A DNA stretch of 49,722 nt from Rozella allomycis CSF55 (taxonomy: Eukaryota): positions 1 to 49,722 of the forward strand of contig KE560729.1 of the NCBI GenBank assembly GCA_000442015.1. Reading direction: 5' to 3'. The translations under genes and the position numbers were made by a program. Below the pieces are notes generated by a model. It was given only the letters and a program-made list of their open reading frames with translations, was not told where the DNA came from and made no database searches. The number at the start of each line of letters is the position of its first letter. The stretch's first letter is position 1. This document shows, piece by piece, positions 1-42,600 of the stretch.

Positions 1-2246
1 CATTCTGATTTGGAGGAAAATTGGCATTTATTTTCAAAGAAATTTACACTTTTAAACGAAGAGTATAAAGTGATGTCAAAGAATGTTGAAATGATGATTC
101 ATGTTGTGCTAAGAAGAAATAAAGTAGAGAAAATGATTCAAGTATAAAAATTAACAAAGAAATAAAAGGCTTATCCTGAACAAAGGAAGGAATTGTTCTT
201 CAACTATATTGAAGAAGAAATGAAACATAAAGACACCAACTTTGTAAGAAATCTCTTTGAGATTTTGGTTGCTGAATTTTGTCTGGTTGTTGAAGTGTGG
301 ATGAAATATTTAAAATTTTTGGTATATTTTCAATAAGAATTAAATAAATTAGCGGCTAAACTTGTGTGTTGAATCTGTTGTGAGTGTGATAAGTTGGAGG
401 GCTTGTAGGAATTGTACGTGGTCTTCTATGGTTTGGATTGAGCATTTACATTTTATGGTACAGCATTTACATAAAATTTATAGGAATTGTTTAAAAAGGA
501 TTTTAATTTGATTGTTGAAGAGTATGAAAGGAGTGTCCAGATTGGTTATTCCAATCCTCTGGAGTATTTGGAAATTTCGTTGTGTATTCTTGACATATTC
601 CATCGATATTCTAAACAAGGTTTGACAAGTGATTTTGAATTGTTTGATAAATTGGCTTTAAAGGGATTAGATATTCAAAGACAAATTGATCCAAATGATT
701 TAAGAATTTATTTTATTTATGCTTTTACTTTTGCTTCACATGATTTTAATAAAACAAGATCCATTCTAGAGCAAGCATCAAGGGAACATTCAAAGAATTA
801 TTTATTTTGGCTGAAATACGCAGAGATGGAAAAGTAAAAGTTTAATTCTTAAATAATAAAGAAATTTTGGTGAAATTAAAAAAGTTTCGTCGCTGTGTAA
901 GAGGGCCATTGTTGCCATTCATGACAGCAGCGTTAATTACATTTATGAAGCTTACCTTGAATTTGAAAGATTTTATGGCGATATTTCATCATTTTATGTC
1001 GCGTTTGATAAAATTAATAATGATAAACTTTACAAACAANTTCGCTGTTTAAGAGGGCCATTGTTGCCATTCATGACGGCACCGTTAATTACATTTATGA
1101 CGCTTATCTTGAATTTGAAAGATTTTATGGCGATATTTCAACATTTTATGTCGCGTTTGATAAAATTAATAATGATAAACTTTACAAACAACAATTTCAA
1201 GTTGAGCCAAAGGAATCTCCTGTTGAGCAGCCAATGATGAACACGCTGGTTGAATCTAAAACTGAAAAAAGAAAACATTCAGATCTTGATGAATCTAGAT
1301 CAATTAAAAGAAAAAGTAACAAATTCTTTGTTTGTTAAAAAGAACAAGAAAAACCAAATCAACGCACCGTTTTCCTGTCAAATTTGGATTACAATGTTAA
1401 TGAAGAAGAAATAATTAATGCTTTAAAGCAAGTAAACAAATTCATTAAAATTCAAAGTGTGGTGAAATTCAAAGTGTTAGAATTGTTNGTCTTTGTTTGT
1501 TAAAAAGAACAAGAAAAACCAAATCAACGTACCGTTTTCCTATCAAATTTGGATTACAATGTTAATGAAGAAGAAATAATTGATGCTTTAAAACAAGTAA
1601 ATAAATTCATTAATATTCAAAGTGTGGTGAAATTCAAAGTGTTAGAATTGTTACAAATGAGAATGGTAAATCAAAAGGATACGCTTACGTTGAATTTGAT
1701 TCTTCAGAGTCTGTTGAATTAGCTTTGAAATTAGATAAAACGGACTTAAACGGAAGGCCAATGTTTGTTAGTCCTTATCAAAGAAAGTCAACTAGTCAAG
1801 AAACTTCTACAAAGAAAGAAGACAGAAAAATTCTATACGTTAATAAACTTTTAAAAAGCACGACTAAGAAAGATTTGGAAGAGTTCTTTTCTTCCTATGG
1901 GCCCAATAAGGTTCGCTTAGTGTGTGAAAAGGATGGATCTTGCAAAGGTTTTGCTTACGTTGAATTTAACGATCATGTAATCCTTTTTAACTTTAATTTA
2001 TTAAAGGAAACTGCTGCTAAAGCTTTGGATGCTCATAACAAGGAATTTCTAGGCGCGAGAATTCATGTTGCTTTTTCAAATCCTCCCAAGCAGAAGAAAG
2101 TATCCGGTAATCAAGAAGTAGAAAGCAAGCAACTTACAATGATGGTTCCTCACTCTGCAAGAAAAAAGACTTCAAAAGATAACGCAACATTAAACTCTCC
2201 AAAATCTAATGATGATTTCCGTAGCATGTTATTTAATTCTAAATAA
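1..2246 (+). CDS. SART3: SART3/Prp24-like U4/U6 recycling factor (HAT repeats + RRMs), 5'-truncated, multi-exon, with N-flanked assembly duplications
   Basis: Spliced translation gives HAT-like helices (WRACRNCTWS), RRMs with RNP1 motifs (KSKGYAYVEF, CKGFAYVEF) and the C-terminal Lsm-binding motif PKSNDDFRSML. Introns are 26-31 nt. Confidence 0.85.
889..1191 (+). repeat. ~151-nt direct duplication flanking N1040 (assembly/haplotype overlap)
   Basis: 889-1039 and 1041-1191 are nearly identical, with several substitutions. Confidence 0.85.
1324..1652 (+). repeat. ~164-nt direct duplication flanking N1488 (assembly/haplotype overlap)
   Basis: Near-identical copies on either side of the N. Confidence 0.85.
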
Positions 2247-2760
2247 ATTAACTTAAATTTTGTAATCTACTTTGCTACATTGAATTTCTGTTTTTGTCAA
2301 TTCTATTCATAGAAATGAAGGGGCTAATTATAGATTGCGACCAATGAAATTTGAAACAATCTATATTTAAGAAAACACGAGGTAGCCCCTTATCCTCATG
2401 AAACTAGAGACCATGCGTCTGTTAATTTCTTTCGTGCTTGGTACAGTTTTTGTCAACGCGACCACTAGTACCGCCAGCAACAACAACTCAACCAGTGCAT
2501 CTGTTTCTCTAACAGCACCAACATCTACCATCACAGGTACATCTCCAACTTCATCGACATCAACCAATTCAACAACAACGGCGACAAATCTACCAGCATC
2601 ATGCAAGGTCAAATCAATCAGAAAGGAAATTCGGGATCTCACTCCCAGCGAACTCAAGCAGTTCACCGACGCCATCCTCAAGATCAACACACAAGGCATA
2701 GTGGACACCTTTGCCTACCTCCACGACACGCAATCGCACAAGATCCACAACACAGCAATN

Positions 2761-3523
2761 TTTCTTTACTTCAATTGATGAAAGGAAACTGCTGCTAAAG
2801 CTTTGGATGCTCATAACAAGGAATTTCTAGGCGCACGAATTCATGTTGCATTTTCAAATCCTCCCAAACAGAAGAAAGTATCCGTTAATCAAGAAGTAGA
2901 AAGCAAGCAACTTACAATGATGGTTCCTCACTCGGCAAGAAAAAAGACCTCAGCAACATTAAACTCTCCAAAATCTAATGATGATTTCCGTAGCATGTTA
3001 TATAATTCTAAATAAATTAACTTAAATTTTGTAATCTACTTTGCTACATTGAATTTCTGTTTTTGTCAATTCTATTCATAGAAATGAAGGGGCTAATTAT
3101 AGATTGCGACCAATGAAATTTGAAACAATCTATATTTAAGAAAACACGAGGTAGCCCCTTATCCTCATGAAACTAGAGACCATGCGTCTGTTAATTTCTT
3201 TCGTGCTTGGTACAGTTTTTGTCAACGCGACCACTAGTACCGCCAGCAACAACAACTCAACCAGTGCATCTGTTTCTCTAACAGCACCAACATCTACCAT
3301 CACAGGTACATCCCCCACTTCATCGACATCTCCCACTTCATCAACGGCCACAACTCTACCAGCATCATGCAAGGTCAAATCAATCAGAAAGGAAATTCGT
3401 GATCTCACTCCCAGCGAACTCAAGCAGTTCACCGATGCCATCCTCAAAATCAACACACAAGGCATAGTGGATACATTTGCCTACCTCCACGACACGCAAT
3501 CGCACAAGATCCACAACACAGCA
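2761..3523 (+). repeat. Near-identical copy of ~1984-2759 (SART3 3' end + tyrosinase 5' end) joined at N2760; probable haplotype overlap
   Basis: Direct duplication abutting a single N, with scattered SNPs and small in-frame indels. The first tyrosinase copy (2398-2759) stops exactly at the N. Confidence 0.85.
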
Positions 3524-4408
3524 ATGTTCCTTCCATGGCACCGACACTTTATCAACAAATTCGAGCAGGAGCTGCGCAAAGTGAATGCCAACGTCACACT
3601 TCCATACTGGGACTGGTCCCTCGATGCAGCGCATCCCGAAAAGAGCCCCATCCTCTCCTCCAAGTACATGGGCAGCTCGTCGCAGGGCGGGTGTATTCCC
3701 GACGGACCATTCAAAAACTTTACCGTCAAGGGAAACTGTGTCAAGCGAACGTTTAATCCGAATCCGCCAAAAACAATAACGACGTTCCATTCAACGTCCC
3801 TGCTCGGTGAGCTGATCAGAAAGAACTATACGAGCTACGATGAATTCAGAAGCGCGATTGAAGGATCTCCACATGGTGTGCCGCATACGTTTATTGGCGG
3901 GGACATGTCTACGATGCGATCTCCAGCGGATCCCTTGTTCTACTTGCATCATGCTTTTATTGACAAACTGTGGAATGATTTCCAGCAGGAAAATAACAAA
4001 CAGTTTCTGAACAAGTATGTGTCCGATCCAAAGTCTGCTCAATTGATCGGATATACGGGTGTTAATGTTGCCGATGTTTTGAACCTGGAGAGCATGTGTG
4101 TCCAGTATGTTATGGCTGGCGCGATTGTTGATTCACCGGATTCTATTACATGGAATGTTCCTGCACCAGCACCGTTGGATGATGACTGGCTCAAGATTAA
4201 CCACATGAACTCTACGGAAGTGAGGAAACAGGAAACTGAGATTAAGCAAATGCAAAATAAGGTTATTGAAGATGGAAAGAAGGGAAATATTCCACCTGCA
4301 CCTGGTTATAACGACACGTACAAAAAAGATGAAACTAACAGCGGAGTGTCTTTTGAAACATCATTAGGGTTAGCTCTATTGATTGGATTTGTGCTAAACT
4401 TATTCTAA
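3167..4408 (+). CDS. Secreted tyrosinase (type-3 copper protein) with Ser/Thr-rich linker and hydrophobic, GPI-signal-like C-terminus; intronless
   Basis: Signal peptide; CuA H..H..FLPWHR; LPYWDW; CuB PHGVPH..DPLFYLHH; C-terminal SLGLALLIGFVLNLF. Confidence 0.92.
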   Translation: MKLETMRLLISFVLGTVFVNATTSTASNNNSTSASVSLTAPTSTITGTSPTSSTSPTSSTATTLPASCKVKSIRKEIRDLTPSELKQFTDAILKINTQGIVDTFAYLHDTQSHKIHNTAMFLPWHRHFINKFEQELRKVNANVTLPYWDWSLDAAHPEKSPILSSKYMGSSSQGGCIPDGPFKNFTVKGNCVKRTFNPNPPKTITTFHSTSLLGELIRKNYTSYDEFRSAIEGSPHGVPHTFIGGDMSTMRSPADPLFYLHHAFIDKLWNDFQQENNKQFLNKYVSDPKSAQLIGYTGVNVADVLNLESMCVQYVMAGAIVDSPDSITWNVPAPAPLDDDWLKINHMNSTEVRKQETEIKQMQNKVIEDGKKGNIPPAPGYNDTYKKDETNSGVSFETSLGLALLIGFVLNLF

Positions 4409-26939: not shown

Positions 26940-27657
26940 TTAGATTGTTTCCTTCCTTCTAATCTTGCTCTGAACAATAGCCTCGGTCGCCTCTAGCATG
27001 CCTCTCTTTTTGGAATTCCAATCATTAAACTCCAAAATATTTGCCGCTCCCATTTGAAACACTATTATGTCTCATTAATTTTCATACTATCCTTTTCTGT
27101 ATTGTCTAAGCGCAAATAAAAGGAGCTTGATCGGTCATTAGGAGTACTAAAACACCGTTTTGCAATTTCATTTATTCTGGTGGAAAACGCTTTGGCGACA
27201 ATATTTGCAAGTTCTATATCATTCGAATACCATTATTTGTCATCCCAATATTTTACTTTTTGATGAATGTAAAACTAAAGAGAAAATAAAAGGGACAGTA
27301 ATTGTTTAAAGGCATTGATTCCGGAGATACCTTGAGATCTTCTTGTACTTTTGTCCCTAATATCTTTGGAAGACGAAAATCAACGAGTTCACTCTTTACA
27401 AAATCTATTGAATATTACTGTTCTTGTAGCGTTTCTATTAGCCACAAAGGTATGTCTACTTCCATTGTTTCCTTTTTATAAGTGTTTGAATATAATACTG
27501 CAGTATTGCGAACATTTTCTTCTTTAAATAATGACATGAAAGATAGTAGTTCTTCTTCGGGCACACATTGGCATTTCTATAAAAATTTGATTATTAAATC
27601 TACCATATCTTCAGCAAGAAATAGATCGATATCAAAGTAACGATCGTTAGCATCCAT
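26940..27657 (-). CDS. PSF3: GINS complex subunit Psf3
   Basis: YFDIDLFLAED, VDIPLWL, ELANIVAKAFSTR, FYLRLDNTEK. Requires the non-AG intron 27231-27256. Confidence 0.85.
27231..27256 (-). other. Non-canonical GT-TG intron (26 nt) in PSF3
   Basis: AAA AA|gtaaaatattgggatgacaaataatg|G TAT TCG AAT. Read-through hits TAA and the nearby AGs are out of phase. Confidence 0.7.
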
Positions 27658-30299: not shown

Positions 30300-31344
30300 A
30301 TGGACGAATTTCTTTCCCTTTTAAACGATAAAAATATTTACGAAGCGCATCAACATTTCATATCTACATGTATGAAGTAAAATTATTGTTATACATACAT
30401 GCAGATTGGAAAGAAAGAAAAAATACCAAGAGTCATTCAACTTGATGATCGAAGGATTAAAGGCTTTAATTGAAAAGAAAGAACATCAAAGTGCCAAAGA
30501 TATTTTTATTCGTATATTTACAATGGCAAAGAAATATGATTACAATATCAGTGCGTTTNCTTGATGATCGAAGGATTAAAAGCTTTAATTGAAAAGAAAG
30601 AACATCAAAGTGCCAAAGATATTTTTATTCGTATATTTACAATGGCAAAGAAATATGATTACAATATCAGTGCGTTTGAAAACGATCTCGTAAATGCAGC
30701 ATCCGCTCTTCCTGCTTCTATAGATGTTACGAATTATCTCTTATCGTAAAACACGTTTTTTAATATTTTCTAGGATATTTAAGACAAACGAGGCATATAA
30801 AACTATTGCACAGTCTTGGATTAACGGTAATATTATCTAAATTTACCATACTTTAGCGGCGGATTTTAAGAAAGCGTCAGAAGCTATAGTTAATGTTAAG
30901 GATTCATATAATTTGCTTGCACCGCATATTGACTCTATAGAAATTGATTTAATTATCGAAATAATCCTCAAGTACTTACTTTTTGTTGACTTTAGAAGGT
31001 ATACATGCAATCAAAATTTGAATGATGCATACATGCTTACTAGGCTAGCACTAAGCAAGTTTCCTATTAACGATACGTTGTCGTCTGATGACATGGTACT
31101 ATCATCAAGTAGCCAGCCATTGCTGAACTTTGCTCAATTATTTTTGCTTTGCATTGAAAGAAATAATGTTGCTCAATTAAAATCAGTGATAAATCATTAC
31201 AGCCAAGAAATTGAAAATAAGAAATGGAAGGCTTTAGTTACTTCTATCGGTCACAAGTACTTTTCAATCAATTTATTTCCAAACGCAGCTAATCAAGTTA
31301 ATCCACTGGCTAATATAATGAGCCAGCTTTTGTCTGGTAAATAA
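30300..31344 (+). CDS. GET4: Golgi-to-ER traffic protein 4 (contains an N-flanked ~118-nt assembly duplication)
   Basis: IYEAHQ, PLLNFAQLFL, IGHKYF and C-terminal NPLANIMSQLL. Confidence 0.8.
30441..30678 (+). repeat. ~118-nt direct duplication flanking N30559 inside GET4
   Basis: Near-identical copies on either side of the N. Confidence 0.85.
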
Positions 31345-31412
31345 AATATAGAATATTTATTTTTTCCTAGTTCGCTTGCATACCGTTGACCGTTGTCAAG
31401 TTGAAAAATATC

Positions 31413-34400
31413 ATGAAATCAAATGAGAGAATTAATCAATTTAAAGTTTACTCGGGTATATCAGGCATTACTTCAATGTCATTAATGGCACTAAATGAGG
31501 TCCAAAATACTCATAGCGTAGAATCGAATATAAACTTGGATGAAAGGAATGAATTGCAGCAAGTACGAGCAGAAGTAGAAGAAGTTATGTTCCCTGAATT
31601 CCCATTTGTACCAAGAAAAAACGATGTTAGATCTTACACCAATTTTCAAAGTAAAAAAGTCAAAGAAGTTACTGACATTATCAAGGAAATTGAATCCAAG
31701 AAGAAATCTATTGAAGACGACATAATTGTTTCACAGTTGGGACAATCGCCTGGAAAAGATGTATTGGGATTCTTAGATATAAAAAGTCTCGAAGAAGAAC
31801 TGATACCAGAAGATTTCCGGCCAAAATACATAAAGCTGGATTCTGAAGATGAGACACCAGAACCGAATTTTGAAATTCTATCAGAATCCGATATAGACAA
31901 TGGATTTCTTCCTCTCATTGATCAGCATCGAATACCTATAGGATCTGATTTGTCTAACGGATTTAAGAATTTCAAACCACCTGTTCAAGTTCAAAAAATT
32001 AACTTATCACACAAAGTTACAGCAAGAAGAAGTACTATTGCTATTACTAAACGGCAGTTAACGAGATTAAATTCATCAATATCCATATCTGAGAGAATAG
32101 AGAGATTGAGATCAAGTGGAGACTTTGGGTCAGCCATTTTTGAGGCCATGAATGTTTCATATGTTCCTAAGCGATCAAAAATACTAGAAGTCATGCATGG
32201 ACACTATGAAGAGCGACAAGATAAAAATAAGAGAATCTTTATGGAAAAGCTATCGGAATATGAAAAAATAAAGACATCAATGCCTATGTTAAAGTTGGAT
32301 GATAAAACAATCAAGGAAATACAAGTACCAAAGCGTTATTCCAAATATTAGAATTATTTGAAGCCAAACACTGATGAGATTATTGAAACCAGCAAGATTG
32401 ATTATGAAAACTATGATGTTCCTGGGACGCCGCCCTCATCCCCTGTTGTGGACGAAGAGACGTTGGATGATAATGATGCCTCTACCGTTTCGGATAAAAA
32501 GATCACTAAAAATAACACAGTAAAAAGCAATATTAATATATAATGATCAAAATTGTTCCAGCACATAGAACTGACAAAAATGATGACTCAAACGGGAAGG
32601 ATTTCACGTAATTTTGAGATTAATTTGTTTACAGTGTTAAAGAGTTCTTAATCGCAAATGGCAAAGTAATTGAATCTTTGCCCCCTTTCATTGCATTCAA
32701 ACAAAAGAATATACAAAAATGGGGCCCATTACTTTGTATCATCCAAGACATGGAAAAGCTCTTAACAAAATACTCGGTTCCGCTTTGCCAAGTCGACTGT
32801 AAAAAGTTGGAGATGCTAGCAGCCAGATTCTGGATGGAGAAACCAACAGACAAACATTTGATTTCTACGTTTGTAAATGCAAATCAAGTAGAAACAATAT
32901 AATTGTTTTACAAGGTCGAAAAAATAATCCGTACACCTGGCAATCTTTACAAATCTAATGACCGAGATAATAACGCTCTGCTTAAAATCCAAGCGACTTG
33001 GAGAATGTACAAGTGTAGACAATGGTATTTGGATCAGCTCAATAGAAAATCTGCAGCTGCTATATTTTTAAGATATTTCAACGCAATTAAAAATAAGAGA
33101 TATTCGCGCGAGCGTTTGGAGGTACCCCAATTTACGCATCCTGACCCAGCAAAGGAAAGCGGAAATTAGGACAGTTTATAAATCTGTTCAAGCAGAGTAT
33201 TACGCGGGGAATAATTTTTACTTGAAATACGAGTAATTAGCTTGCATTGTTTTAGAAAGCCTCTTATTTCATTTTATTGTTCCGCCTAAAAGCGCCCGAC
33301 AGCAAACACACTTTGAAGAATTCTGCAGGGATTGTATTGTGCCGTATACATCTATGTAAATTAATCCTGTAATAGTTATAGATTGACTGATCTTATTGAC
33401 AAGGCGAAAAAGCTCGTCATTATTTGCAGTTTTGAGATTCCAGAGTCTATATTGAGTATCTACAGAAATATATTACGTAAGCTAATCCGGCGAGTTTTTT
33501 AGAATATCATGGTATAAAAATGGATGAAAATGTCATATGGATAATGCCAGAAACGCTAATGTATTACCCTAAATATTCTAGTGTTATTGCTGCGATGGAG
33601 ACAAGTGATAGAACTGTGAAAAAGATATGCGAATTAGCAAATTCTGTTTCTAATAAGTTAGCATTAACCGGGAAATTGTCTACAAAGGAAGCAAATCTCG
33701 TGAATGTAAATAATCCGTATTAAAATTGTTAGTCTATTGATGTACCGTTCTTTGCACCAGACGTCTATTTAAATCCTTTGTCAAATAGAGTACAAGTGAT
33801 GGAATTTTTGCAAAAACATGGACTTCCAACCTTACCTTATCAAATATGCACACCCAAAACAGAAGAGGATATCTTTGCATGCTTAAATGAAATAAGAGAG
33901 AAGCATCCAAATTATCCCAGGTAAATTGAAAATTTGACTAATAGTTGATGGTGTTTGAAGATTAATGACTTTGATAGTTGTGGCATCGCATACATCAGTA
34001 ATTGTTCCAATCACATTAAACTTAGATTCGTCATCTTTGGATGAAAAGATATACTTAGATATGGCGTTTTGTCATATAAAATTTAACAATTTAAGAGAAT
34101 ATTTGATTGCAAGTGGGAAGGACCCGCTCATAATTCAAGCCAGTCCTCACTTGTTTGGTGGTTTGGCTTGTGCATTGTTTCTGGTCATTTATCCGGACAA
34201 AAATTTTAAAATTGAAGGCATGGTTGATCTTATTTTCAAGGAACCATTCGATGCCATTGGTTTCAGAGCGCCATCGTCTGCTACGATACCTTTGGAATTT
34301 ATAGAGAAATTATGCTTGTCCTTATATGAAGAGGGTATAATTGGGTCTGTCACCGTGGAGTTTGTTCTTAAAGAAACATCTAGTGATCCATTCGACACAG

Positions 34401-35707
34401 AATTTGTTATAGTGGACATTAAACCATATTTGACAATGAATCATGCGGATTTTAACTTTTGTTTATCGATTTTATTTGCCAAGTTCTACGACAATAAAAT
34501 TGAATCATATTATGATCCCAACAAGAAAAAGTCGACAGTTTATCTTAATAGAGTTAACAAATTGGATAAGGTAACCTTTTTCTTGTATAATAGAAAGTCT
34601 TTATTAAAAAAGAAAGGAGATGATCAAGATGCAAACATTTATTTCATCTTCATAAAGAATTTAATGCATTCATATTTACAGCTTACCAACTCGTCTGTGA
34701 ATCACTCGATCATGTCAGCAAATGGATTAAGTTTGGAACAAAATGTAAAACTTTACACGCCAATATTTTAGAGCAGACATGGTGTGTTTTTAAGACCTAC
34801 AACAGATCCCAAAAAGTATGACTTGCTTTGCTCGACAGGCGGGATGCTAGATTGTTATACCAAAACTGTTCTGGCTCTTAAAACCTTGCATTATATATAC
34901 TCTTCGGAACTGCATCCCGGAGAATCAAACTTAATGGACCTTTACGTCGCCCTACAATTTTCCTATCAAATAAAGTCCTGTACAAACAGCCCACCAGTTG
35001 AATTAGAAAGAAGCAAAAGTTCAGCGACAAGCACACCAAAGGTTACTCTGTCAAGAAAATCATCGGCAATTGGAGAGTCAAGTTTAAAACGCTCAGGAAT
35101 TGGTAGCTCTTTAAAGAAGGTTCAATTAATGAATAACTATTTTCACGATATTGCAGAGATTCTTTTCGCGATAGACAAGAATGAAGATTCATCACAGATA
35201 ATGAAAAACGAGACGCAATATCAGAAAGTATCAGAATTTTGGAAGTCAGTAAATGTCCTCAAGAGCAAAGTCAAGGAATTAAAAAAGGAAAAGAAATCAG
35301 ATAAAAAGATGAGTCTGGAAGTAGAAGAAATTTCAATAGCGCCTCGATTATCAGTGAGTATGGCTAGAAGAAGAACATCAATGAACCCCGAGTCAGAAAA
35401 ACTTCATGGATCAATAGTAAAATGGCTTGTTGAAGAAGATCAAAACGATATCTACGACAGGTTGCCTAAAATAAATAAAAATACGTCGATAGTCGCGTCT
35501 GTAATACCAGAGACACATGATGACTCTGCAGAATCAGAAAAGCCTTTATCGTTTAGAGAAATACCTCAAAGAAGAGGATCTATAATAGATGAATCTCAGT
35601 TAACTTCTAGACGGACATCCTCTATTCGTGACGGAGCTAATGAGTTTACAAAGACTACAGTTGTAAGAAGAAAGAGCTTGTCCTCTGTGTCATCGCTTAA
35701 AGAATAG
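31413..35707 (+). CDS. IQCH: IQ motif-containing protein H-like (flagellar-associated)
   Basis: WGPLLCIIQDMEKLLTKYSVP, IQ motif KIQATWRMY, RWCLKIND..GIAY and IIGSVTVEF; ~13 introns, two of them non-AG. Confidence 0.75.
32520..32545 (+). other. Probable GT-TG intron (26 nt) in IQCH-like gene
   Basis: AAC ACA|gtaaaaagcaatattaatatataatg|ATC AAA. Read-through stops, and the first in-phase AG would need an 80-nt intron. Confidence 0.55.
33921..33947 (+). other. Non-canonical GT-TG intron (27 nt) in IQCH-like gene
   Basis: CCC AG|gtaaattgaaaatttgactaatagttg|A TGG gives PRWCLK. Using the TAG at nt 24 gives AGT TGA (stop). Confidence 0.75.
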
Positions 35708-35732
35708 ATTAGAATAAAGGCATATTATTGAT

Positions 35733-37193
35733 TTATTTATTGATTATATAGGCGTATACACCAACACTGATGGATAAAAGGGTCAATATTCCAAGGCCTT
35801 GATATGGGTTGATCTAATTGACGTGCTAACTAATTCATACTTGATATCCAGATTGGGTTTTCAACAATTTCACTTGATTTCTTAATTCAAATTCATTTTT
35901 CTCCAAAGAAGATATTTTGTTCTTGTATTCTTCTAAAAGTTTATCTTTTAGATCCTCATTGACTTTAAGCTTGGAAATGTCTTCTTGGGAACTCTTATAT
36001 TTCTCATCAAACTCATCTATGTTATAAAAGAATTTGGGTTATTACTGTTTATCTGTTTCATAGTATTTTTTAAGAGAATCAATTCTTTTTCGCTGGCTTC
36101 CAATTTCACAACTGCATCATGATATTGTTTTTGAAATTTCTCAATTGATTTAGACAATTCTTCAGAAGATTTTTTGATGGTTTCTTCATGCTTGGCTTTA
36201 AGTGATTCAATTTCTTTATTCAGAACTAAAACTTGAGCTTTGAATTTCTCTGAATTCTTCTTTTCTTCAGATGCATTGTTCGTTAATTTAGAGATATTTG
36301 CTTTTAGAGACTCAATTTCAGATTCCAAACTTTTTTTCGTGATCTGTTGCCATTGCAATTATTTGTTACTTGGGATTGGGAAAGTTTATCTTTAAGATCT
36401 TTGTTCTCCTTGACTAATTTTTGATTCTCTTTTTCAGTTCCGCTGTACTTTTTAATTTCTTCCTTCAATGTCTTCAATTCATCTATGAATGAATCTTTTT
36501 TAATCGTGGCTAATTTATCATCTTCAATCACAACAGATGCGTCATTAAGAATAGTCTTTAATGTCCCTTCCAATTCTCCAAGTTTCTGGTCATGTTCATT
36601 TAATTTTTTAATTTGTTCTGATGATATTACGTCGTCTTTCATTTCTACATTCTTTGCTGGGATTATGTGAACAACGCAATCTATTCTACTATAAAGAACT
36701 ATCTTTATTAACGCAATAAATTACGCGATGATTCTTCTTCTTGATAAATGTCTACACCCAGAGTAAGCTTATCTCCTTCTTTCAACTCTACAGGTTCACT
36801 TTCTTCACCTTCTTGACTCAATCGATTTCCATTAAGAAATGTCCCATTGCTAGATTTAGTATCCTTTATGAATATCTATCATGGATTAATAATATTTTCA
36901 TTTACTTTTCCATGTTCATCGGCAGATATCAAGGCATGGTTCCTTGAAAGCACCTTGTTGTCAAAATATCCATTCTCTGATGTCGGTGCTGTCTTTGAAG
37001 ATATTTGTCGTCCAAGAACAATCGGCTGCGATAGTACAAGAACCTTTTCTTCAAATGAATTGTTTGTTGATTCCAAAATTACTGCGGGATTGGTAGGTGC
37101 GCTAGAGTATGTAAACGTTTTATTTTGCTTTTTGGATCCTGATAAACTGCATTTATTCTTCATACCCTTTTTCTTGCCAACGTCAGTGTCCAT
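35733..37193 (-). CDS. FHA + coiled-coil tail-anchored STRIPAK protein (SLMAP/Far9/Far10-like)
   Basis: LGRQ..NGYFDNKVLSRNHA, DTKSSNGTFLN, long coiled coil, C-terminal TM GLGILTLLSISVGVYAYII. Confidence 0.88.
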
Positions 37194-37226
37194 CGTGCCA
37201 ATTTCAGAATTTCTTAAAATTCGGAA

Positions 37227-37780
37227 ATGGACTTTGTGATTCCAGAGGGATTTGCTACAGTAGAAGTCGGGATTTACCGCTCATCTCCTCTAAATAATAC
37301 ACATTCAAAGTATATTCAATCACTCAACCTTAAAACATGCGTTTCATTGTCCATGGATGCAATAGCCAAGAATTTTGTGTCATTTTTTGAAGAAAACAAA
37401 ATACAACTAGTATTTATTAACATGTGACATTAAAGATTAATATATCGCGAGAATCTTGGAAGGCTAACCATGATTGGAAGCCTGTAATGGAAGAACTAAT
37501 CAAGGATAGTCTGGAGATTATTTTAAAGGATTCAAGTCATCCTGTACTAATTGTGTCCTCATCATCTGATGTTTCTGTAGTGATTGCATGCCTTAGGAAG
37601 ATGCTGAATTGGAACTTTTCAAGCATAATAATAGAAGTAAAGTTTTAACAAGGAATTGAATAGTACAGATTTTTTACAAAAGTGAAAAACAGAAACAGGG
37701 AAGAGCAGTTCATTGAACAATTTGACACTGATCTAGTCACAGTGATTGAAAAATCAACACTAATGGAAAGATATTCTTAA
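37227..37780 (+). CDS. Siw14/Oca-family phosphatase-like protein, catalytically degenerate (Oca2/Oca4-like)
   Basis: PEGFATVEVGIYRS, HPVLIV, VVIACLRK..WNFSSIIIEYRFF, EQFIEQFD; no CX5R cysteine. Confidence 0.85.
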
Positions 37781-37790
37781 AACATAAAAA

Positions 37791-38767
37791 CTATTTAATT
37801 CTATTTCTTTCAGCAATCAAAATGCGCTGGAATACAATTTCTATCGTCTCGTTTGTAGTCAAGTTTTTCAAAGCCTATTATTTCAAACAATAAACCGTAC
37901 CAGCTCTACATCAGCTTCAAGTTGGCACGATTCAATGCCATCGAGATACTCGTCCATCGGAATAATCTGCTCCCATCTTGAATGTTTCTGCACGGATTTC
38001 GACACAATCGTCAGTTCATCCTCCAATTCTGCACCATCGTCTACATCATCCAGCGGCGTCCAAACCGTCAGTTTCCTATAATCTCACCAACTACCCACGT
38101 ACGTTTTAATAATCTTATAATCATGCCTCGAAGCATTGTTAATCTGCAAAAACAAATCCACATTGCTCTGCTGCGTCGTATTAGGTCTCGCCGCCCACAT
38201 AATTGGCAATACAGAACACTATTATATAACCGAACAATCATCATACACAAACATCTTTACATACACGTTTATACAGAAACGAATAGTCCAAACAAGTTCT
38301 CGCAAGGTACTCAAACATCAGCGAATTGCAATGCACATTCTCCGGCACATTATTACTAATCGGACTAAACGGATACACCATCCTTGCCGACACTATCTCT
38401 CCTCTACAAGCTTCTTACCAAACGACGGCCTCTGTGTCTTTAAATTCCACGTCAAATAGTACCTCATCCGATCGCACTGCTCATACTCTTCCGGCTCGAG
38501 TTCGCAGTTATTGACAACGTATGGGTAAAAGCTTTTCAGAATAATGTCGCGTCTGCCTGGGTAAACGGAATAATGCAATGTACCGTCTGTGGTGTGGATG
38601 AAATTGGTGCCGAATGCCAATGGATTTTTCTGTTTGGCGACCGTGTGGCCGACTATGCTGAGGGATGATTTTTTGGAGCGCTTCGGACGCAGTGTGGAGT
38701 ATTGGCGTAGGATGCTGATCATTTGGAGTGGGTTGTGGAATGCCGACAGGGGTTTAGATGGAATCAT
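37791..38767 (-). CDS. Mitochondrially targeted protein, divergent POLDIP2/PDIP38-like (YccV-like + ApaG-like)
   Basis: Four 26-28 nt introns give a continuous ORF with a presequence-like N-terminus and several blocks colinear with POLDIP2 (recalled alignment, not a search). Confidence 0.55.
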
Positions 38768-38906
38768 GGAGAGAGGGGTTCAAAGGAACAATTTTATGGA
38801 ATTATTTATAATAGAATTGTGAAAAGAATGTTGAATATTCATTAACATGACTCGCATTTTTATAGCACTTTATATAGGCACCAATTCTCTATTTATTTAC
38901 ATTTGA

Positions 38907-39486
38907 ATGTCAAGAAAGAAATCAACAAGCAATGTGAGTGAAGGTAATAGAATATAAAAAGAAAAAAGCAGAATCCGATGTATTTGTGTACAAGGAGAAT
39001 GAACAATGGAGATACGGTAAATCAAAGTAGATTATGTGAGATAGAGGGAAAGTATACAGTGAGTACGGGAGAAGTAATGAGAAATGGAATGGGGAAGATG
39101 TGTTATGATGGATATGTGTATGAAGGAGAATGGCTGAATGATATGATGAATGGAACAGGTACAATGTGCATTAAAATGATACAGGAACGCTGGTGTATCC
39201 GAATGGAGAGAGTTACAAGGTAGATTTCAGTAGTTAAATTAAGTAGGGCGAGTTTAAAGAAAATAAGTTTGAGGGAAAAGGAAAGTATGTGTGGCCTAAT
39301 GGTACTTTAGTTGAATTAGTTTAATGTAGGAATTGTGTATGAGGGGGAATGGAAGGATGGCAAGTAAAGTGATGGATGATGTGAAATAGAATGGATGGCA
39401 TTGGAGTGTTGACAATGGAAGGATGTAGATGGACGGGTCCATTTGAGCAAGGAGTTGCCAAGAATTTAAAAATACTGTATAAATAA
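38907..39486 (+). CDS. MORN2: MORN repeat protein, MORN2-like (7 exons)
   Basis: YEGEWLNDMMNGTGTLVYPNGESYKGEFKENKFEGKGKYVWPNGIVYEGEW..WTGPF..NLK; six 26-28 nt introns. Confidence 0.8.
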
Positions 39487-39504
39487 AAGAAAGAGTGAAA
39501 TTGT

Positions 39505-39609
39505 AAATAAAGACTATTAAAATAAAGACTATTAAAATAAAGACTATTAAAATAAAGACTATTAAAATAACGAGTATCAAAATGAAGAGCTTTAAAATAC
39601 AGACTAATA
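39505..39609 (+). repeat. 15-bp minisatellite (AAATAAAGACTATTA): 4 perfect + ~3 degenerate copies
   Basis: Read directly from the sequence; lies between the convergent MORN2 and UBA1 stop codons. Confidence 0.95.
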
Positions 39610-39640
39610 AAGACTTTTAACCGATGATATCATAAATTTA

Positions 39641-42600
39641 TTAAGGTCTGATTCTTATTTTAACATATGGCACTTCAACATCATCATCGTTAGCATCATT
39701 AACACAAACTTCCAGAATGATATCTTTAACATGTGCTGGAATAGGTGTTTTCGTGATAGATTCAACCAGTTGAGAGATGGGAATGTTCATTCTTTCTTCC
39801 AACTTCTTTTTGTTCATAAAGAACGAGTAGAGCATGCTAACGTTGCAAGAGACCATAGTGATTGATAGACTGTGTTGAGACTTGAAAATGTCAATTAGCT
39901 GAGAAAGAGTAATGTCACCGTTGATGTCGAATCTGTCCCATAGAGTCCATTCAATGTCGTTGTATTTCAACTTTGGAGCAGCGATTGGTTCAGAGAATGT
40001 GAATAGAGGCAAAGAAAGATTAATGAAGCCATTCTTGTAATCATCGATCTTTCTGTTCCCATCGATAATCTTTAAAAGTTCTAAACAAATTAAACCAGAG
40101 ACTAGTGCAGTTGTTGTAGCGATTGCAGGAATGATTTTGCCAGCGATGAATTTAGTTTTGTGCTTGTCAGCTGGTGGAATATCATAACAAGAAGCTCTTA
40201 GATTGGAAGTTGCTGTGATGAAATCAATGTGAAAGTTTGAATCATCGTCTTTTTCAAAATCAATTCTTTGCATTTTATAGCCAGGTAGTGAATTAGGTAA
40301 AGGTAAAGATTTAATTAAAGAATCAACGTCAATGTTTAGATTAACATTTTCATTTGAATTTTCATTATTTTCAACTTGAATTTTAACTCCACTTTTTGGA
40401 ATAAATTCTTCAACTTTAATTTTATTAACAATTTCTTTAAAATAGTTTAAATCTAGAGATCCTTTTAAACCAAAATTTTGAGCTCTTAAATTTGAAGCAA
40501 AAATGATAAAATCTAAATGATCCTTGTTATTTAAATCAAACTTTAATGGCTTTGGACATCTCTTGGGTCCAGACCAAAAAGGAGTCCCACTTGAATTTAA
40601 TGAATCTGGTGGGAAATTAAACAACAATTGTTTTATATTATTACTAAAATATTCTTCAAATTTATTTCTTGCCCAAATCACACATTGTTCAAAATTAATT
40701 GGCTTTTCACTAACAAGACAAGATTCCAATCCCACAACTGCTTCCTTTAACACATTATTACCTATCAAGTATTACTAGTGGAAGATTACCTAGTTAATCT
40801 CACATATCACTACTTTTACCTTGCTTGGTCAAGTTTTCTAGATAATCATTGAATGATAAATATTGATTAACATTCTCAGCTAGATTTGTAAATAACCCTT
40901 CAAAGATATCTCTTCCCCATTGAATGGTATGTTCAATTTGATTAGGAAAATTCTTCAGAGTACACATTGGAATTGATTTCTCTGGTGGATCTTGAGATGA
41001 TGAATATGATTCAGTTAGAAATGGTACCACAACCTGTGTATTCCCCTTTGTTCCCAATGTTCCACTTTCAAGCAATGGTTTTCTATAATAAACACATCTT
41101 CTATCAACATATTTTCTTGCATCAACATTATCCAATGCATTCGTTACAACATCCAATCCCTCAAAAAATTCATCATTAAAAATATTCTCAGTTTCAATGC
41201 CAACTCTATCTTGGAAACACTCAATCTTAATATCCTTATTCATCTCCTTCACTGCCTTGGCTGCAGTCATCGATTTAGACTTTGAAACATCCCACGGTCT
41301 AAACAAGAATTGTCTATTCAAATTGCTCTTCTCAATGGAATCCATATCTGTTAAATAAATCAATCCTTCCTTTCCACTGCCAATCCCCATCATTCCCCAA
41401 TTCTTCAACATCTCACATCCAATAGCCCCAGATCCAACCAGAAACGCTTTAACATTCTCAACCTTTTCATGAAACTTTCTTCCATACAAATTAATCATTG
41501 GTGAATATCTATCATTCTCACTAGAACACTCTTCTTCATTCAACTCATAATTCTTTGGCAATGATTCAATTGAATCAAAATAGAAATATTGATAAATTGG
41601 ATAAAATTTTCCACTGCAACATTTTAATACTTCTTGCGCTACAATCCCACCTAGAAATCCACTCATGGCTGAAATATATCCCCTCGATTCAAAACTCATC
41701 TCTTTTATTATCCCTTGCTCTATTTCAACACTCATCCCCTCTTCTTTAATCATACTCTCAACAATTCTTATCAATTCTTTAGCATCTTCTTCATTTCTTG
41801 GTCTAGGCAATCTCTTATTCTCTTCTTCATATTTCTTCAATCCAATAAACCCTAAATGAATCATCATCGGTCTATCAAATTTAGAAAAATCAGAAATCAC
41901 AAACTCTGGATCTTTAAAACTTTCTCTAAACGATTTCTACTCTAACACATAAATTCTCCTTACAAATGATATCGTCTTTGGCTGCTTCACTTGTTGGAAA
42001 ATACCCCCTGATACATACTCTGACAAATTCCTTGTATCCCCAATACTAAACGTAAACGGTCCATGAACCTTCACTCTCCTAGGCTCACACCCATTCAACT
42101 CTTGCATCCCCTTAACCTCAGAAAACGTCACATAATCGCCATCCTCCAATCCATGTCTACTCTCCTCCAAACACGTCACTATCCCATCAGCCTCCCTACT
42201 CACACCAGCAACCATCCCGCTCTCAGCATCCTTGCCATTCGTATCAATAACCTCAAACTCTCTTCCAAAATCACAAAACGTAAATCTTTCTCACAAAAAT
42301 TCACCCCCTTACCCAAACAGCCCCCGCACATCAGCAGCAATAAACCCTATCCCACGCGCATGCGTATACTCATTAATCTCAACAAGCTCCCGCAAACTGC
42401 CCTCTGTCAACACAACACACTGGAACCTCTCAACCATCTCCACAGAAAACTCACCATCCAACACATGCACTGGCACATAGCTGTTCAACTCGGCCAACTT
42501 GCCCACACTCGCTTCATCCCTCCTCTTGCCATAATCACTCTCGTGCAGGAAAAACTTTACTGCGTCTATTCATCCCTTACCTGCGCCGCCAAATCCTCTG

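Follow-up and report, generated by a model that had tools for sequence, protein, structure and literature searches.

The DNA analysed here, hereafter the window, is the whole 49,722-nucleotide (nt) stretch at positions 1 to 49,722 of contig KE560729.1 (assembly GCA_000442015.1) of Rozella allomycis CSF55, which contains approximately 33% G+C and is read with the standard genetic code. Its forward strand carries a 4.3-kilobase (kb) gene predicted to encode a protein that combines an IQ motif with an ATP-grasp domain. One intron of this gene, located at 33921-33947 and referred to below as the focal intron, is a candidate for splicing at a TG instead of the usual AG (Table 1). The splicing of this intron is the subject of the present analysis.

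The host gene and its focal intron

Between ATG 31413 and the stop codon at 35705-35707, the open reading frame (ORF) of the gene is continuous only via the TG junction or via two canonical alternatives. Its IQ motif was detected by Pfam (PF00612) on 32903-33169, with 24.3 bits for a cut-off of 20.3. Database searches with the large downstream exon yielded a single relative, P0001, a hypothetical protein of 920 amino acids (aa) from Rozella allomycis CSF55 that shares 97% identity with it. P0001 is the public model of the gene; it covers 32148-35704, starting 245 codons downstream of ATG 31413, and bridges 33122-33400 (279 nt) and 33921-34113 (193 nt) as long introns. The first of these regions can alternatively be read as three small exons, with GT-AG introns at 33122-33149 (28 nt), 33233-33259 (27 nt) and 33344-33375 (32 nt) keeping the frame. 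Across the second, P0001 reads HPNYP-SGKDP and skips 46 residues. Residues 290-640 of P0001 correspond in the ESM Atlas to an ATP-grasp_IQCH / PGM1-like domain (TM 0.83 to PF24923 clusters), and the protein has long disordered flanks. Word-index searches, conducted with P0001 and also with its region 290-640, and an exhaustive phmmer search returned only P0001 and no eukaryotic orthologue. No relative emerged from metagenomes scanned with the large exon, and a PDB sequence search with P0001 found no match.

The focal intron reads GTAAATTGAAAATTTGACTAATAGTTG, that is, GTAAAT…CTAATAG-TTG. The upstream reading frame ends in phase 2 (…TAT CCC AG), after which the sequence continues with GTAAATTGAAAATTTGACTAATAG TTG and, on the exon side, with ATGGTGTTTGAAG. 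Three acceptor ends come into consideration: a TAG (nt 24 of the intron, 33944), a TTG (nt 27, 33947) and, as the following AG, an AAG (nt 40, 33960). Splicing after the TAG creates CCC AGT TGA, a stop located at aa 747 of the gene model, while splicing after the TTG creates CCC AGA TGG TGT TTG AAG, which encodes P R W C L K.

The focal intron is identical in contigs from three DNA runs belonging to two studies. Record 3 of run X1 (33592-34707) and record 10 of run X2 (33592-34427) show 0 differing letters over the stretches indicated, and record 18 of run X6 (33587-36617) shows three, at 34264, 34897 and 34921, all downstream of the intron. The listing of differences between contigs and window contains no insertion or deletion near it. 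X1, X2 and X6 behave as DNA, since no intron is skipped in their contigs. Because the contigs of three DNA runs match at this position, an assembly error is excluded and the TTG site is genuine DNA.

Table 1. Features of the gene and of the region surrounding the focal intron; intron positions (nt) are counted from the donor at 33921.
Feature	Position	Strand	Remarks
Whole gene, IQ motif and ATP-grasp domain (IQCH/BesA-like)	31413-35707	+	1313 aa and 12 introns in the TG model
Upstream exon	33733-33920	+	ends …HPNYP + AG (phase 2)
Focal intron GTAAAT...TTG (GT-TG), 27 nt	33921-33947	+	predicted splicing
CTAAT, branch-site-like motif	33938-33942	+	nt 18-22, A at nt 21; putative branch role
TAG, canonical-looking acceptor	33942-33944	+	nt 22-24; below the 26-nt minimum; in-frame TGA
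TTG	33945-33947	+	nt 25-27
Exon of 50 nt (16 codons), (R)WCLKINDFDSCGIAYI(N)	33948-33997	+	ATP-grasp lysine strand with a degenerate glycine loop
AAG, canonical 40-nt alternative	33958-33960	+	nt 38-40; first AG at or after nt 26
GT-AG intron, 28 nt	33998-34025	+	restores the downstream frame in the TG model
Large downstream exon	34026-34744	+	central and C-terminal ATP-grasp part; family columns 355-451; matches P0001
AG acceptor of the public 193-nt intron 33921-34113	34112-34113	+	

Intron length and acceptor usage in the window

Introns were sought throughout the window as GTA...AG segments that connect two open frames, each of 25 codons or more, and that have an interrupted read-through. 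Lengths of 15-25 nt gave 0-11 candidates each, with 7 at 24 nt and 2 at 25 nt, after which the counts rose to 34 at 26 nt, 27 at 27 nt and 27 at 28 nt, followed by 10 at 29 nt and 15 at 30 nt. At 32 nt and longer, counts were mostly 5-14 per length, approximately 8-9 on average, and the 8 candidates of 40 nt do not exceed this background. A clear excess of such ORF-joining candidates is found at 26-30 nt only, and the minimum intron length in the window is sharp, at 26 nt.

Acceptor usage was examined in a strict set of 68 confident introns, defined by a length of 26-31 nt, flanks of at least 30 codons each and a G+C content of at most 31%. Of these, 12 skip an internal AG that ends between nt 20 and nt 25, for example three introns of 27 nt that end in ...AGAG. 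None skips an internal AG located at nt 26 or beyond, and all 68 use the first AG at or after nt 26. The working rule for the window is consequently "first AG at or beyond nt 26". Concerning branch-site-like motifs, YTRAY is present in just 25 of the 68 introns, and among the 51 bearing T[AG]A[CT] the commonest placement (10 introns) puts the A at nt 23. The commonest 3' arrangement is a TAATAG-type end, with the A three bases before the cut.

Compared with these U2-type GT-AG introns, the focal intron has the GTA donor and an appropriate length and lacks the terminal AG. Its donor hexamer, GTAAAT, is the second commonest in the confident set (9/68), and the context of its TTG resembles that of ordinary acceptors, 38 of the 68 introns having a T at position -3 and 29 an A at exon position +1. 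AG-ending versions of the same intron would measure 24 nt (leading to the stop), 40 nt or 193 nt.

A single-intron scan of the whole window for non-AG acceptors retrieved 83 candidates, all of which have canonical alternatives. Eight donors in the window have an AG at nt 22-25 and none at nt 26-31; according to the per-length table, the seven besides the focal donor have no frame-open TG solution at nt 26-28. Fungal intron medians range from 29 to 197 bp (PMC8042348). In those parts of the literature on Rozella short introns and intron length that were consulted, neither a 26-nt minimum nor non-AG acceptors are described.

Two other accounts of the focal intron were considered and rejected. 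U12-type introns have the extended 5' consensus (G/A)TATCCTT, which the donor GTAAATTG lacks. Stop read-through of a retained intron would have to pass two in-frame stops, the TAA at 33922-24 and the TGA at 33946-48.

Homology of the 16-codon exon and competing splice models

The earlier note on this DNA held that a TG acceptor must beat the TAG located 3 nt upstream, given the stop created by the latter and the P-R-W-C-L-K obtained with the TTG. Both of these outcomes were reproduced from the sequence, but the "must" proved too strong. The note overlooked two in-frame canonical introns, the one of 40 nt ending at AAG 33960 and the one of 193 nt, and did not mention that the TG reading also requires removal of a second intron, the 28-nt GT-AG intron at 33998-34025. 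With that removal, splicing after the TTG leaves a frame open over 1313 aa. Splicing after the AAG at nt 40 leads to a stop at aa 769 if the 28-nt intron is also removed, and to an open frame of 1318 aa if 33998-34025 is coding; the public 193-nt intron gives an open frame of 1267 aa. Because canonical in-frame models of 40 and 193 nt exist, the frame alone does not force the TG, and the case for it rests on protein homology.

The family set used to evaluate this homology consisted of bacterial PF24923 members from whole genomes. Of its 43 rows, 37 full-length proteins were kept; the 6 dropped rows are wrong ORFs of G+C-rich loci and are the ones in which the K is absent. The 37-protein alignment displays the motif P..l.R-h-V-V-K-L-[NDE]-E-[GS]-x-S-G-x-G-N. 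The lysine strand of the family follows the pattern hhK[LI]N[DE]xxS, and in a 19-row alignment (A1) K240 and L241 are invariant. The upstream exon of the Rozella gene matches A1 columns 214-274, ending exactly at the R of 'P..l.R' (probability 52.6%, E 1.4e-4). The register of the following residues was fixed beforehand because the upstream exon aligns to the R preceding the strand. In the TG frame, these residues are W-C-L-K-I-N-D-F-D-S, which align without gap, the K, L, N, E and S of the family being matched by K, I, N, D and S, respectively.

Peptides were scored with a frequency-based matrix, using as a null set the 55,802 peptides obtained from every open stretch of the window in its six frames; of the scoring tests, this is the one relied on here. 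The first ten residues of the TG exon score 0.73, a value reached by 364 of the null peptides (p about 0.0065), while L-M-T-L-I-V-V-A-S-H, read by the 40-nt model, scores -17.9, reached by 45,622 of them. Local hhalign comparisons of the family with the first 430 aa from the ATP-grasp start of each model gave a probability of 87.4% (score 52.3) for the TG model, 28.3% (36.5) for the 40-nt model and 15.9% (33.6) for the 193-nt model. The alignment of the TG model spans the small exon, which is placed on VVKLNEgfSGEGNA, with high confidence at R-W-C-L-K-I-N-D. A 30-aa frame-1 piece submitted alone gave no hhalign alignment, being too short. Local HMMER scores obtained with our own family hidden Markov models (A -1.3, B -2.3, C -4.0 bits) lie 1-3 bits apart, a small difference because the alignments stop at the exon. 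Ungapped HMMER scores with flattened emissions were -10.3 for A and -20.2 for B, A reaching only the 20th percentile of the null peptides.

The family profile also matches PDB entry 8YI6, an L-propargylglycine--L-glutamate ligase (E 1.5e-64), whose strand reads R-A-M-V-K-L-D and whose glycine loop is degenerate. The loop of the Rozella protein is degenerate as well, reading SCGIA where the family reads SGEGN. The likeness of the Rozella protein to ATP-grasp_IQCH (PF24923) is seen in both fold and profile and includes the lysine strand. Judged by these comparisons, the 16 codons of this exon genuinely encode protein when read in the TG frame, or did so at least in an ancestor, and it is well supported that the conserved protein would need the TG acceptor.

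The same comparisons bear on the public annotation, in which the single 193-nt intron removes the whole stretch. This intron is GT-AG, keeps the frame and belongs to the deposited model; however, it leaves a protein devoid of the lysine strand, with the lowest family score of the three models compared. The stretch 34028-34111, which it skips, is continuous with the downstream ORF, the public model also skips 33122-33400, where small introns keep the frame, and the excess of intron candidates described above is confined to 26-30 nt. We consider this annotation very unlikely to reflect the actual splicing.

A second alternative is the canonical 40-nt GT-AG intron 33921-33960 with 33998-34025 coding. 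The protein would then read ...PR-LMTLIVVASHTSVIVPITLNLD-SSS..., and the family match found in the other frame would be due to chance. In such a protein, neither the invariant K nor the [NDE] of the family strand would be preserved, the score of its peptide is that of a random sequence, and the hhalign probability drops from 87% to 28%. The 40-nt model furthermore demands a trio of coincidences, namely an off-frame stretch open over 16 codons, the motif match (p about 0.0065) and a phase-correct 28-nt GT-AG segment, which jointly are of the order of 1e-4. Introns of 40 nt are themselves unusual in the window, where the candidates of that length stay at background level.

A number of observations nevertheless weigh against the TG acceptor, several of them to the benefit of the 40-nt intron. 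The latter provides an all-canonical open solution and obeys both the AG-only rule and the first-AG rule followed by 68 of 68 confident introns, which for this donor predicts the AAG at nt 40. The motif score of the 28-nt intron required by the TG model is weak, at the 3rd percentile of the confident introns. Long ORFs totalling 19.5 kb contain 53 GTA..AG look-alikes of 26-31 nt, of which 12 score at least as high as this intron. Codon usage, compared over 12 shared codons, does not separate the two frames and leans slightly toward the 40-nt model (likelihood ratio 0.5-0.6), being thus neutral to slightly favourable to it. TG-ending candidates show no excess (13, 4 and 7 at 26, 27 and 28 nt versus approximately 10 per length), nor did a two-intron scan of the whole window reveal any TG enrichment (TG 3, AT 4, CT 3, TC 3). 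The public model also leaves unused a TG found at nt 26 of a different intron of this gene. Neither P0001 nor the unspliced exon pieces gave a Pfam match to PF24923/ATP-grasp at E up to 10, and the family profile is bacterial. The RNA-labelled run X10 placed nothing on the window, and among the runs listed as holding 32600-35700 none is recorded as RNA, so the junction is unseen. As for other organisms, TG sites in human were never the sole acceptor in the cases described in PMC2374985, where AG>TG mutants activate neighbouring AGs, and the transcript-based table of Ganoderma lingzhi introns in PMC11590231 counts only 22 GT-TG introns out of approximately 92,000 (approximately 0.02%). On balance, the 40-nt intron appears unlikely to us.

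These results also limit the earlier claim that a minimum of about 26 nt overrides the AG consensus. The minimum itself stands, given the sharp rise in candidates from 24 to 28 nt (7, 2, then 34, 27 and 27) and the short AGs skipped in 12 of the 68 introns. The override does not hold as a general rule, as no confident intron passes over an AG at or beyond nt 26, TG ends are not in excess and, for the focal intron, splicing at the next AG, at nt 40, would be the ordinary result.

The third alternative is a broken acceptor, for instance through mutation to TTG of an ancestral TAG|A at nt 25-27. Cutting at the AG of nt 40 or nt 24 would then leave transcripts with a premature stop, and the gene would be a recent pseudogene or, in this isolate, a crippled allele. 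The behaviour of the human AG>TG mutations, which activate nearby AGs and not the TG (PMC2374985), would be in line with such a lesion. The DNA data probably derive from one cultured isolate, the stretch being shared by runs bearing two organism labels and P0001 coming from strain CSF55. Moreover, X1 and X2 are free of variants over 1.1 kb surrounding the focal intron, and the lesion may therefore be of recent date.

The variation found in and around the gene speaks against this scenario. Within 30700-40700, approximately 96 single-base differences and a few single-base insertions or deletions distinguish the window from the contigs of the DNA runs. Both alleles can occur within one run, as at 33533 in X1 and, in both X1 and X2, for an A inserted after 36365, which suggests approximately 1% heterozygosity or a mixed population. 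Among the 40 of the 96 differences that are listed, 14 fall in exons of the gene; counted singly, 9 are synonymous and 5 non-synonymous for an expected non-synonymous share of 0.79 (P = 5e-4), and two of the 14 share one codon and are jointly silent. The gene was thus under purifying selection while these variants arose, and it looks functional. In addition, X6 contigs with the other alleles at 33533 and 34264, which flank the site, still carry the TTG, and the TG is therefore present on more than one haplotype. Apart from this site, all exons and introns of the 4.3-kb gene are intact. The pattern of variants argues against a dead gene and, weakly, against a very recent lesion, and we find the broken acceptor rather improbable.

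Taken together, the evidence slightly favours productive use of the TG at 33946-33947 as an acceptor, a reading based chiefly on the sequence of the encoded protein. The probability left over by this reading and the three alternatives goes to an explanation outside those listed here.

Two further places in the window present candidate TG ends. In the same gene, 32520-32545 (+) is a candidate 26-nt intron, GTAAAAAG...TATAATG, ending in TG at nt 26. Combined with a 27-nt GT-AG intron at 32608-32634, it leaves a frame as open as that obtained with the public introns of 42 nt (32520-32561) and 35 nt (32608-32642), the second of which passes over a CAG at nt 27, contrary to the 68/68 rule. P0001 and the window differ by three residues in the exon of the 32520-32642 region; of the underlying changes, 1 would be non-synonymous and 2 would be synonymous if the alternative frame is read, versus 3 non-synonymous in the public one, and as they are absent from the X1 and X2 contigs they may be errors. 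The second place, 27231-27256 (-), lies in a GINS/Sld5-like gene at approximately 26940-27480 (-) (Pfam PF05916, E 0.02 on 27071-27232). Its donor, GTAAAATATT at 27256 (-), keeps the Sld5-matching frame only if nt 26, the end of ...AATAATG, is the last intron base. From nt 26 onwards, the first AG is found at nt 43 and is out of frame by one base, and a one-base error in the A-run preceding the donor would make a canonical 43-nt intron fit. Should both candidates hold, TG acceptors would occur at the per-cent level and not at 0.02%.

Some other features of the window are reported here for completeness. Further downstream in the gene, 34571-34597 (+) reads GTAACC...TATAATAG-AAAG, in which a TAATAG ends early (nt 23) and an AG lies at nt 27; these 27 nt are in frame and stop-free, their status as an intron is undecidable from the sequence, and the public model removes 111 bases there. 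At approximately 30440-30680 (+), some 120 bases are arranged head-to-tail around a single N at 30559, which looks like an assembly join artefact in the upstream neighbour gene (ending with TAA 31342-31344). Finally, 2441-2495 and 3210-3264 (+) are identical and located 769 bases apart, where the G+C content of the window is highest (42%, 2001-4000); they may be a tandem duplication or belong to a repeat-bearing gene.

Proposed mechanism and comparison with known systems

We propose that the focal intron is spliced as a tiny U2-type intron, 27 nt long, whose sole productive 3' splice site would be UUG|A, 3 nt past the UAG. The UAG would remain unused for being too near the 5' splice site, at less than 26 nt from the donor. 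The 26-nt limit may correspond to a steric minimum of the donor-to-branch distance, imposed either by the smallest possible lariat or by the geometry of the spliceosome. The adenosine of CUAAU lies at nt 21 versus nt 23 in the commonest 26-nt introns, which would place CTAATAG 2 nt too early. The composite CUAAUAG would probably still be used for early recognition of the 3' region or for an early AG-dependent step, and the second step would take G27, which has a U at -3 and an A at +1 as at normal acceptors in this window. Branching at A23, or at a strained A21, would leave G27 at the usual distance of 4-6 nt. The TG cut, combined with removal of the 28-nt GT-AG intron, would then produce the 16-codon exon containing the ATP-grasp lysine strand. 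Some transcripts may use the AAG at nt 40 and then be lost or encode a variant protein.

A broader reading, which we hold to be doubtful, is that the 3' site of tiny introns in Rozella is set mainly by a narrow interval starting at nt 26, in which a terminal G is indispensable, but not an AG. A UG at that position could then act as the sole productive acceptor when this interval is AG-less. The two further candidates described above, 32520-32545 and the donor at 27256 (-), each ending in TAATG at nt 26, conform to this reading. If true, this would constitute a constitutive TG 3' splice site, which the human data say does not exist.

If RNA confirms the TG junction, a hard 26-nt size limit would be forcing the spliceosome to take UG as the only productive 3' splice site. 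Two roles of the AG would then be separated, the UAG serving for recognition and G27 for the second catalytic step, and this in an intron whose branch, 3' and 5' sites all sit within 27 bases. Gene callers restricted to AG would mis-model such a gene, as illustrated by the public model, whose 46 missing residues include the ATP-binding lysine strand, and annotations of genomes with tiny introns may conceal more such cases. If RNA refutes it, the locus would contain an ordinary 40-nt intron or a damaged gene.

The closest known counterparts are the human TG-AG tandems. Human TG 3' splice sites located 3 nt after an AG exist, including those of PCGF2, FBXO17 and PCID2 (PMC2374985, Szafranski et al. 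2007). That work gives 28 nt as the limit for the distance between the AG and the TG, indicates that TG sites prefer a pyrimidine at -3 together with a purine at +1, and proposes that the AG is needed early while the TG can be selected later (PMC2374985). The focal intron resembles these tandems in its GT donor, its TG end and the 3-nt spacing of its NAG and NTG. One AG ends 3 nt upstream of the TG (33944) and another 13 nt downstream (33960), and the T-T-G|A context has the preferred pyrimidine and purine. The human TG is an alternative, often minor, to a productive AG, whereas the Rozella TG would itself be the productive site. Among the neighbouring AGs in Rozella, the one at nt 24 leads to a stop, and the one at nt 40 leads to a stop if the 28-nt intron is removed and otherwise to a protein without the motif. 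In Rozella, the AG located 3 nt upstream would be excluded by a 26-nt minimum intron length, a constraint for which the human cases offer no parallel.

In the scanning, or steric, model of acceptor choice, the first AG downstream of the branch point is chosen and AGs that are too close are skipped. This model agrees with the window, where 12 of 68 confident introns ignore an AG ending at nt 20-25 and every one uses the first AG found from nt 26 onwards; for the focal intron, it predicts the AAG at nt 40 and not the TTG at nt 27. The table available for Ganoderma lingzhi places GT-TG, the pair proposed for the focal intron, among fungal splice pairs, and is silent on length, neighbouring AGs and constitutive use (PMC11590231). 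Unlike Rozella, Ganoderma lingzhi is not an organism with tiny introns. At the protein level, the Rozella domain matches the ATP-grasp_IQCH / PGM1-like ligases, represented by 8YI6, both by structure (TM 0.83) and by profile (87%), and relative to this family the Rozella protein adds an IQ motif, long disordered flanks and the SCGIA loop.

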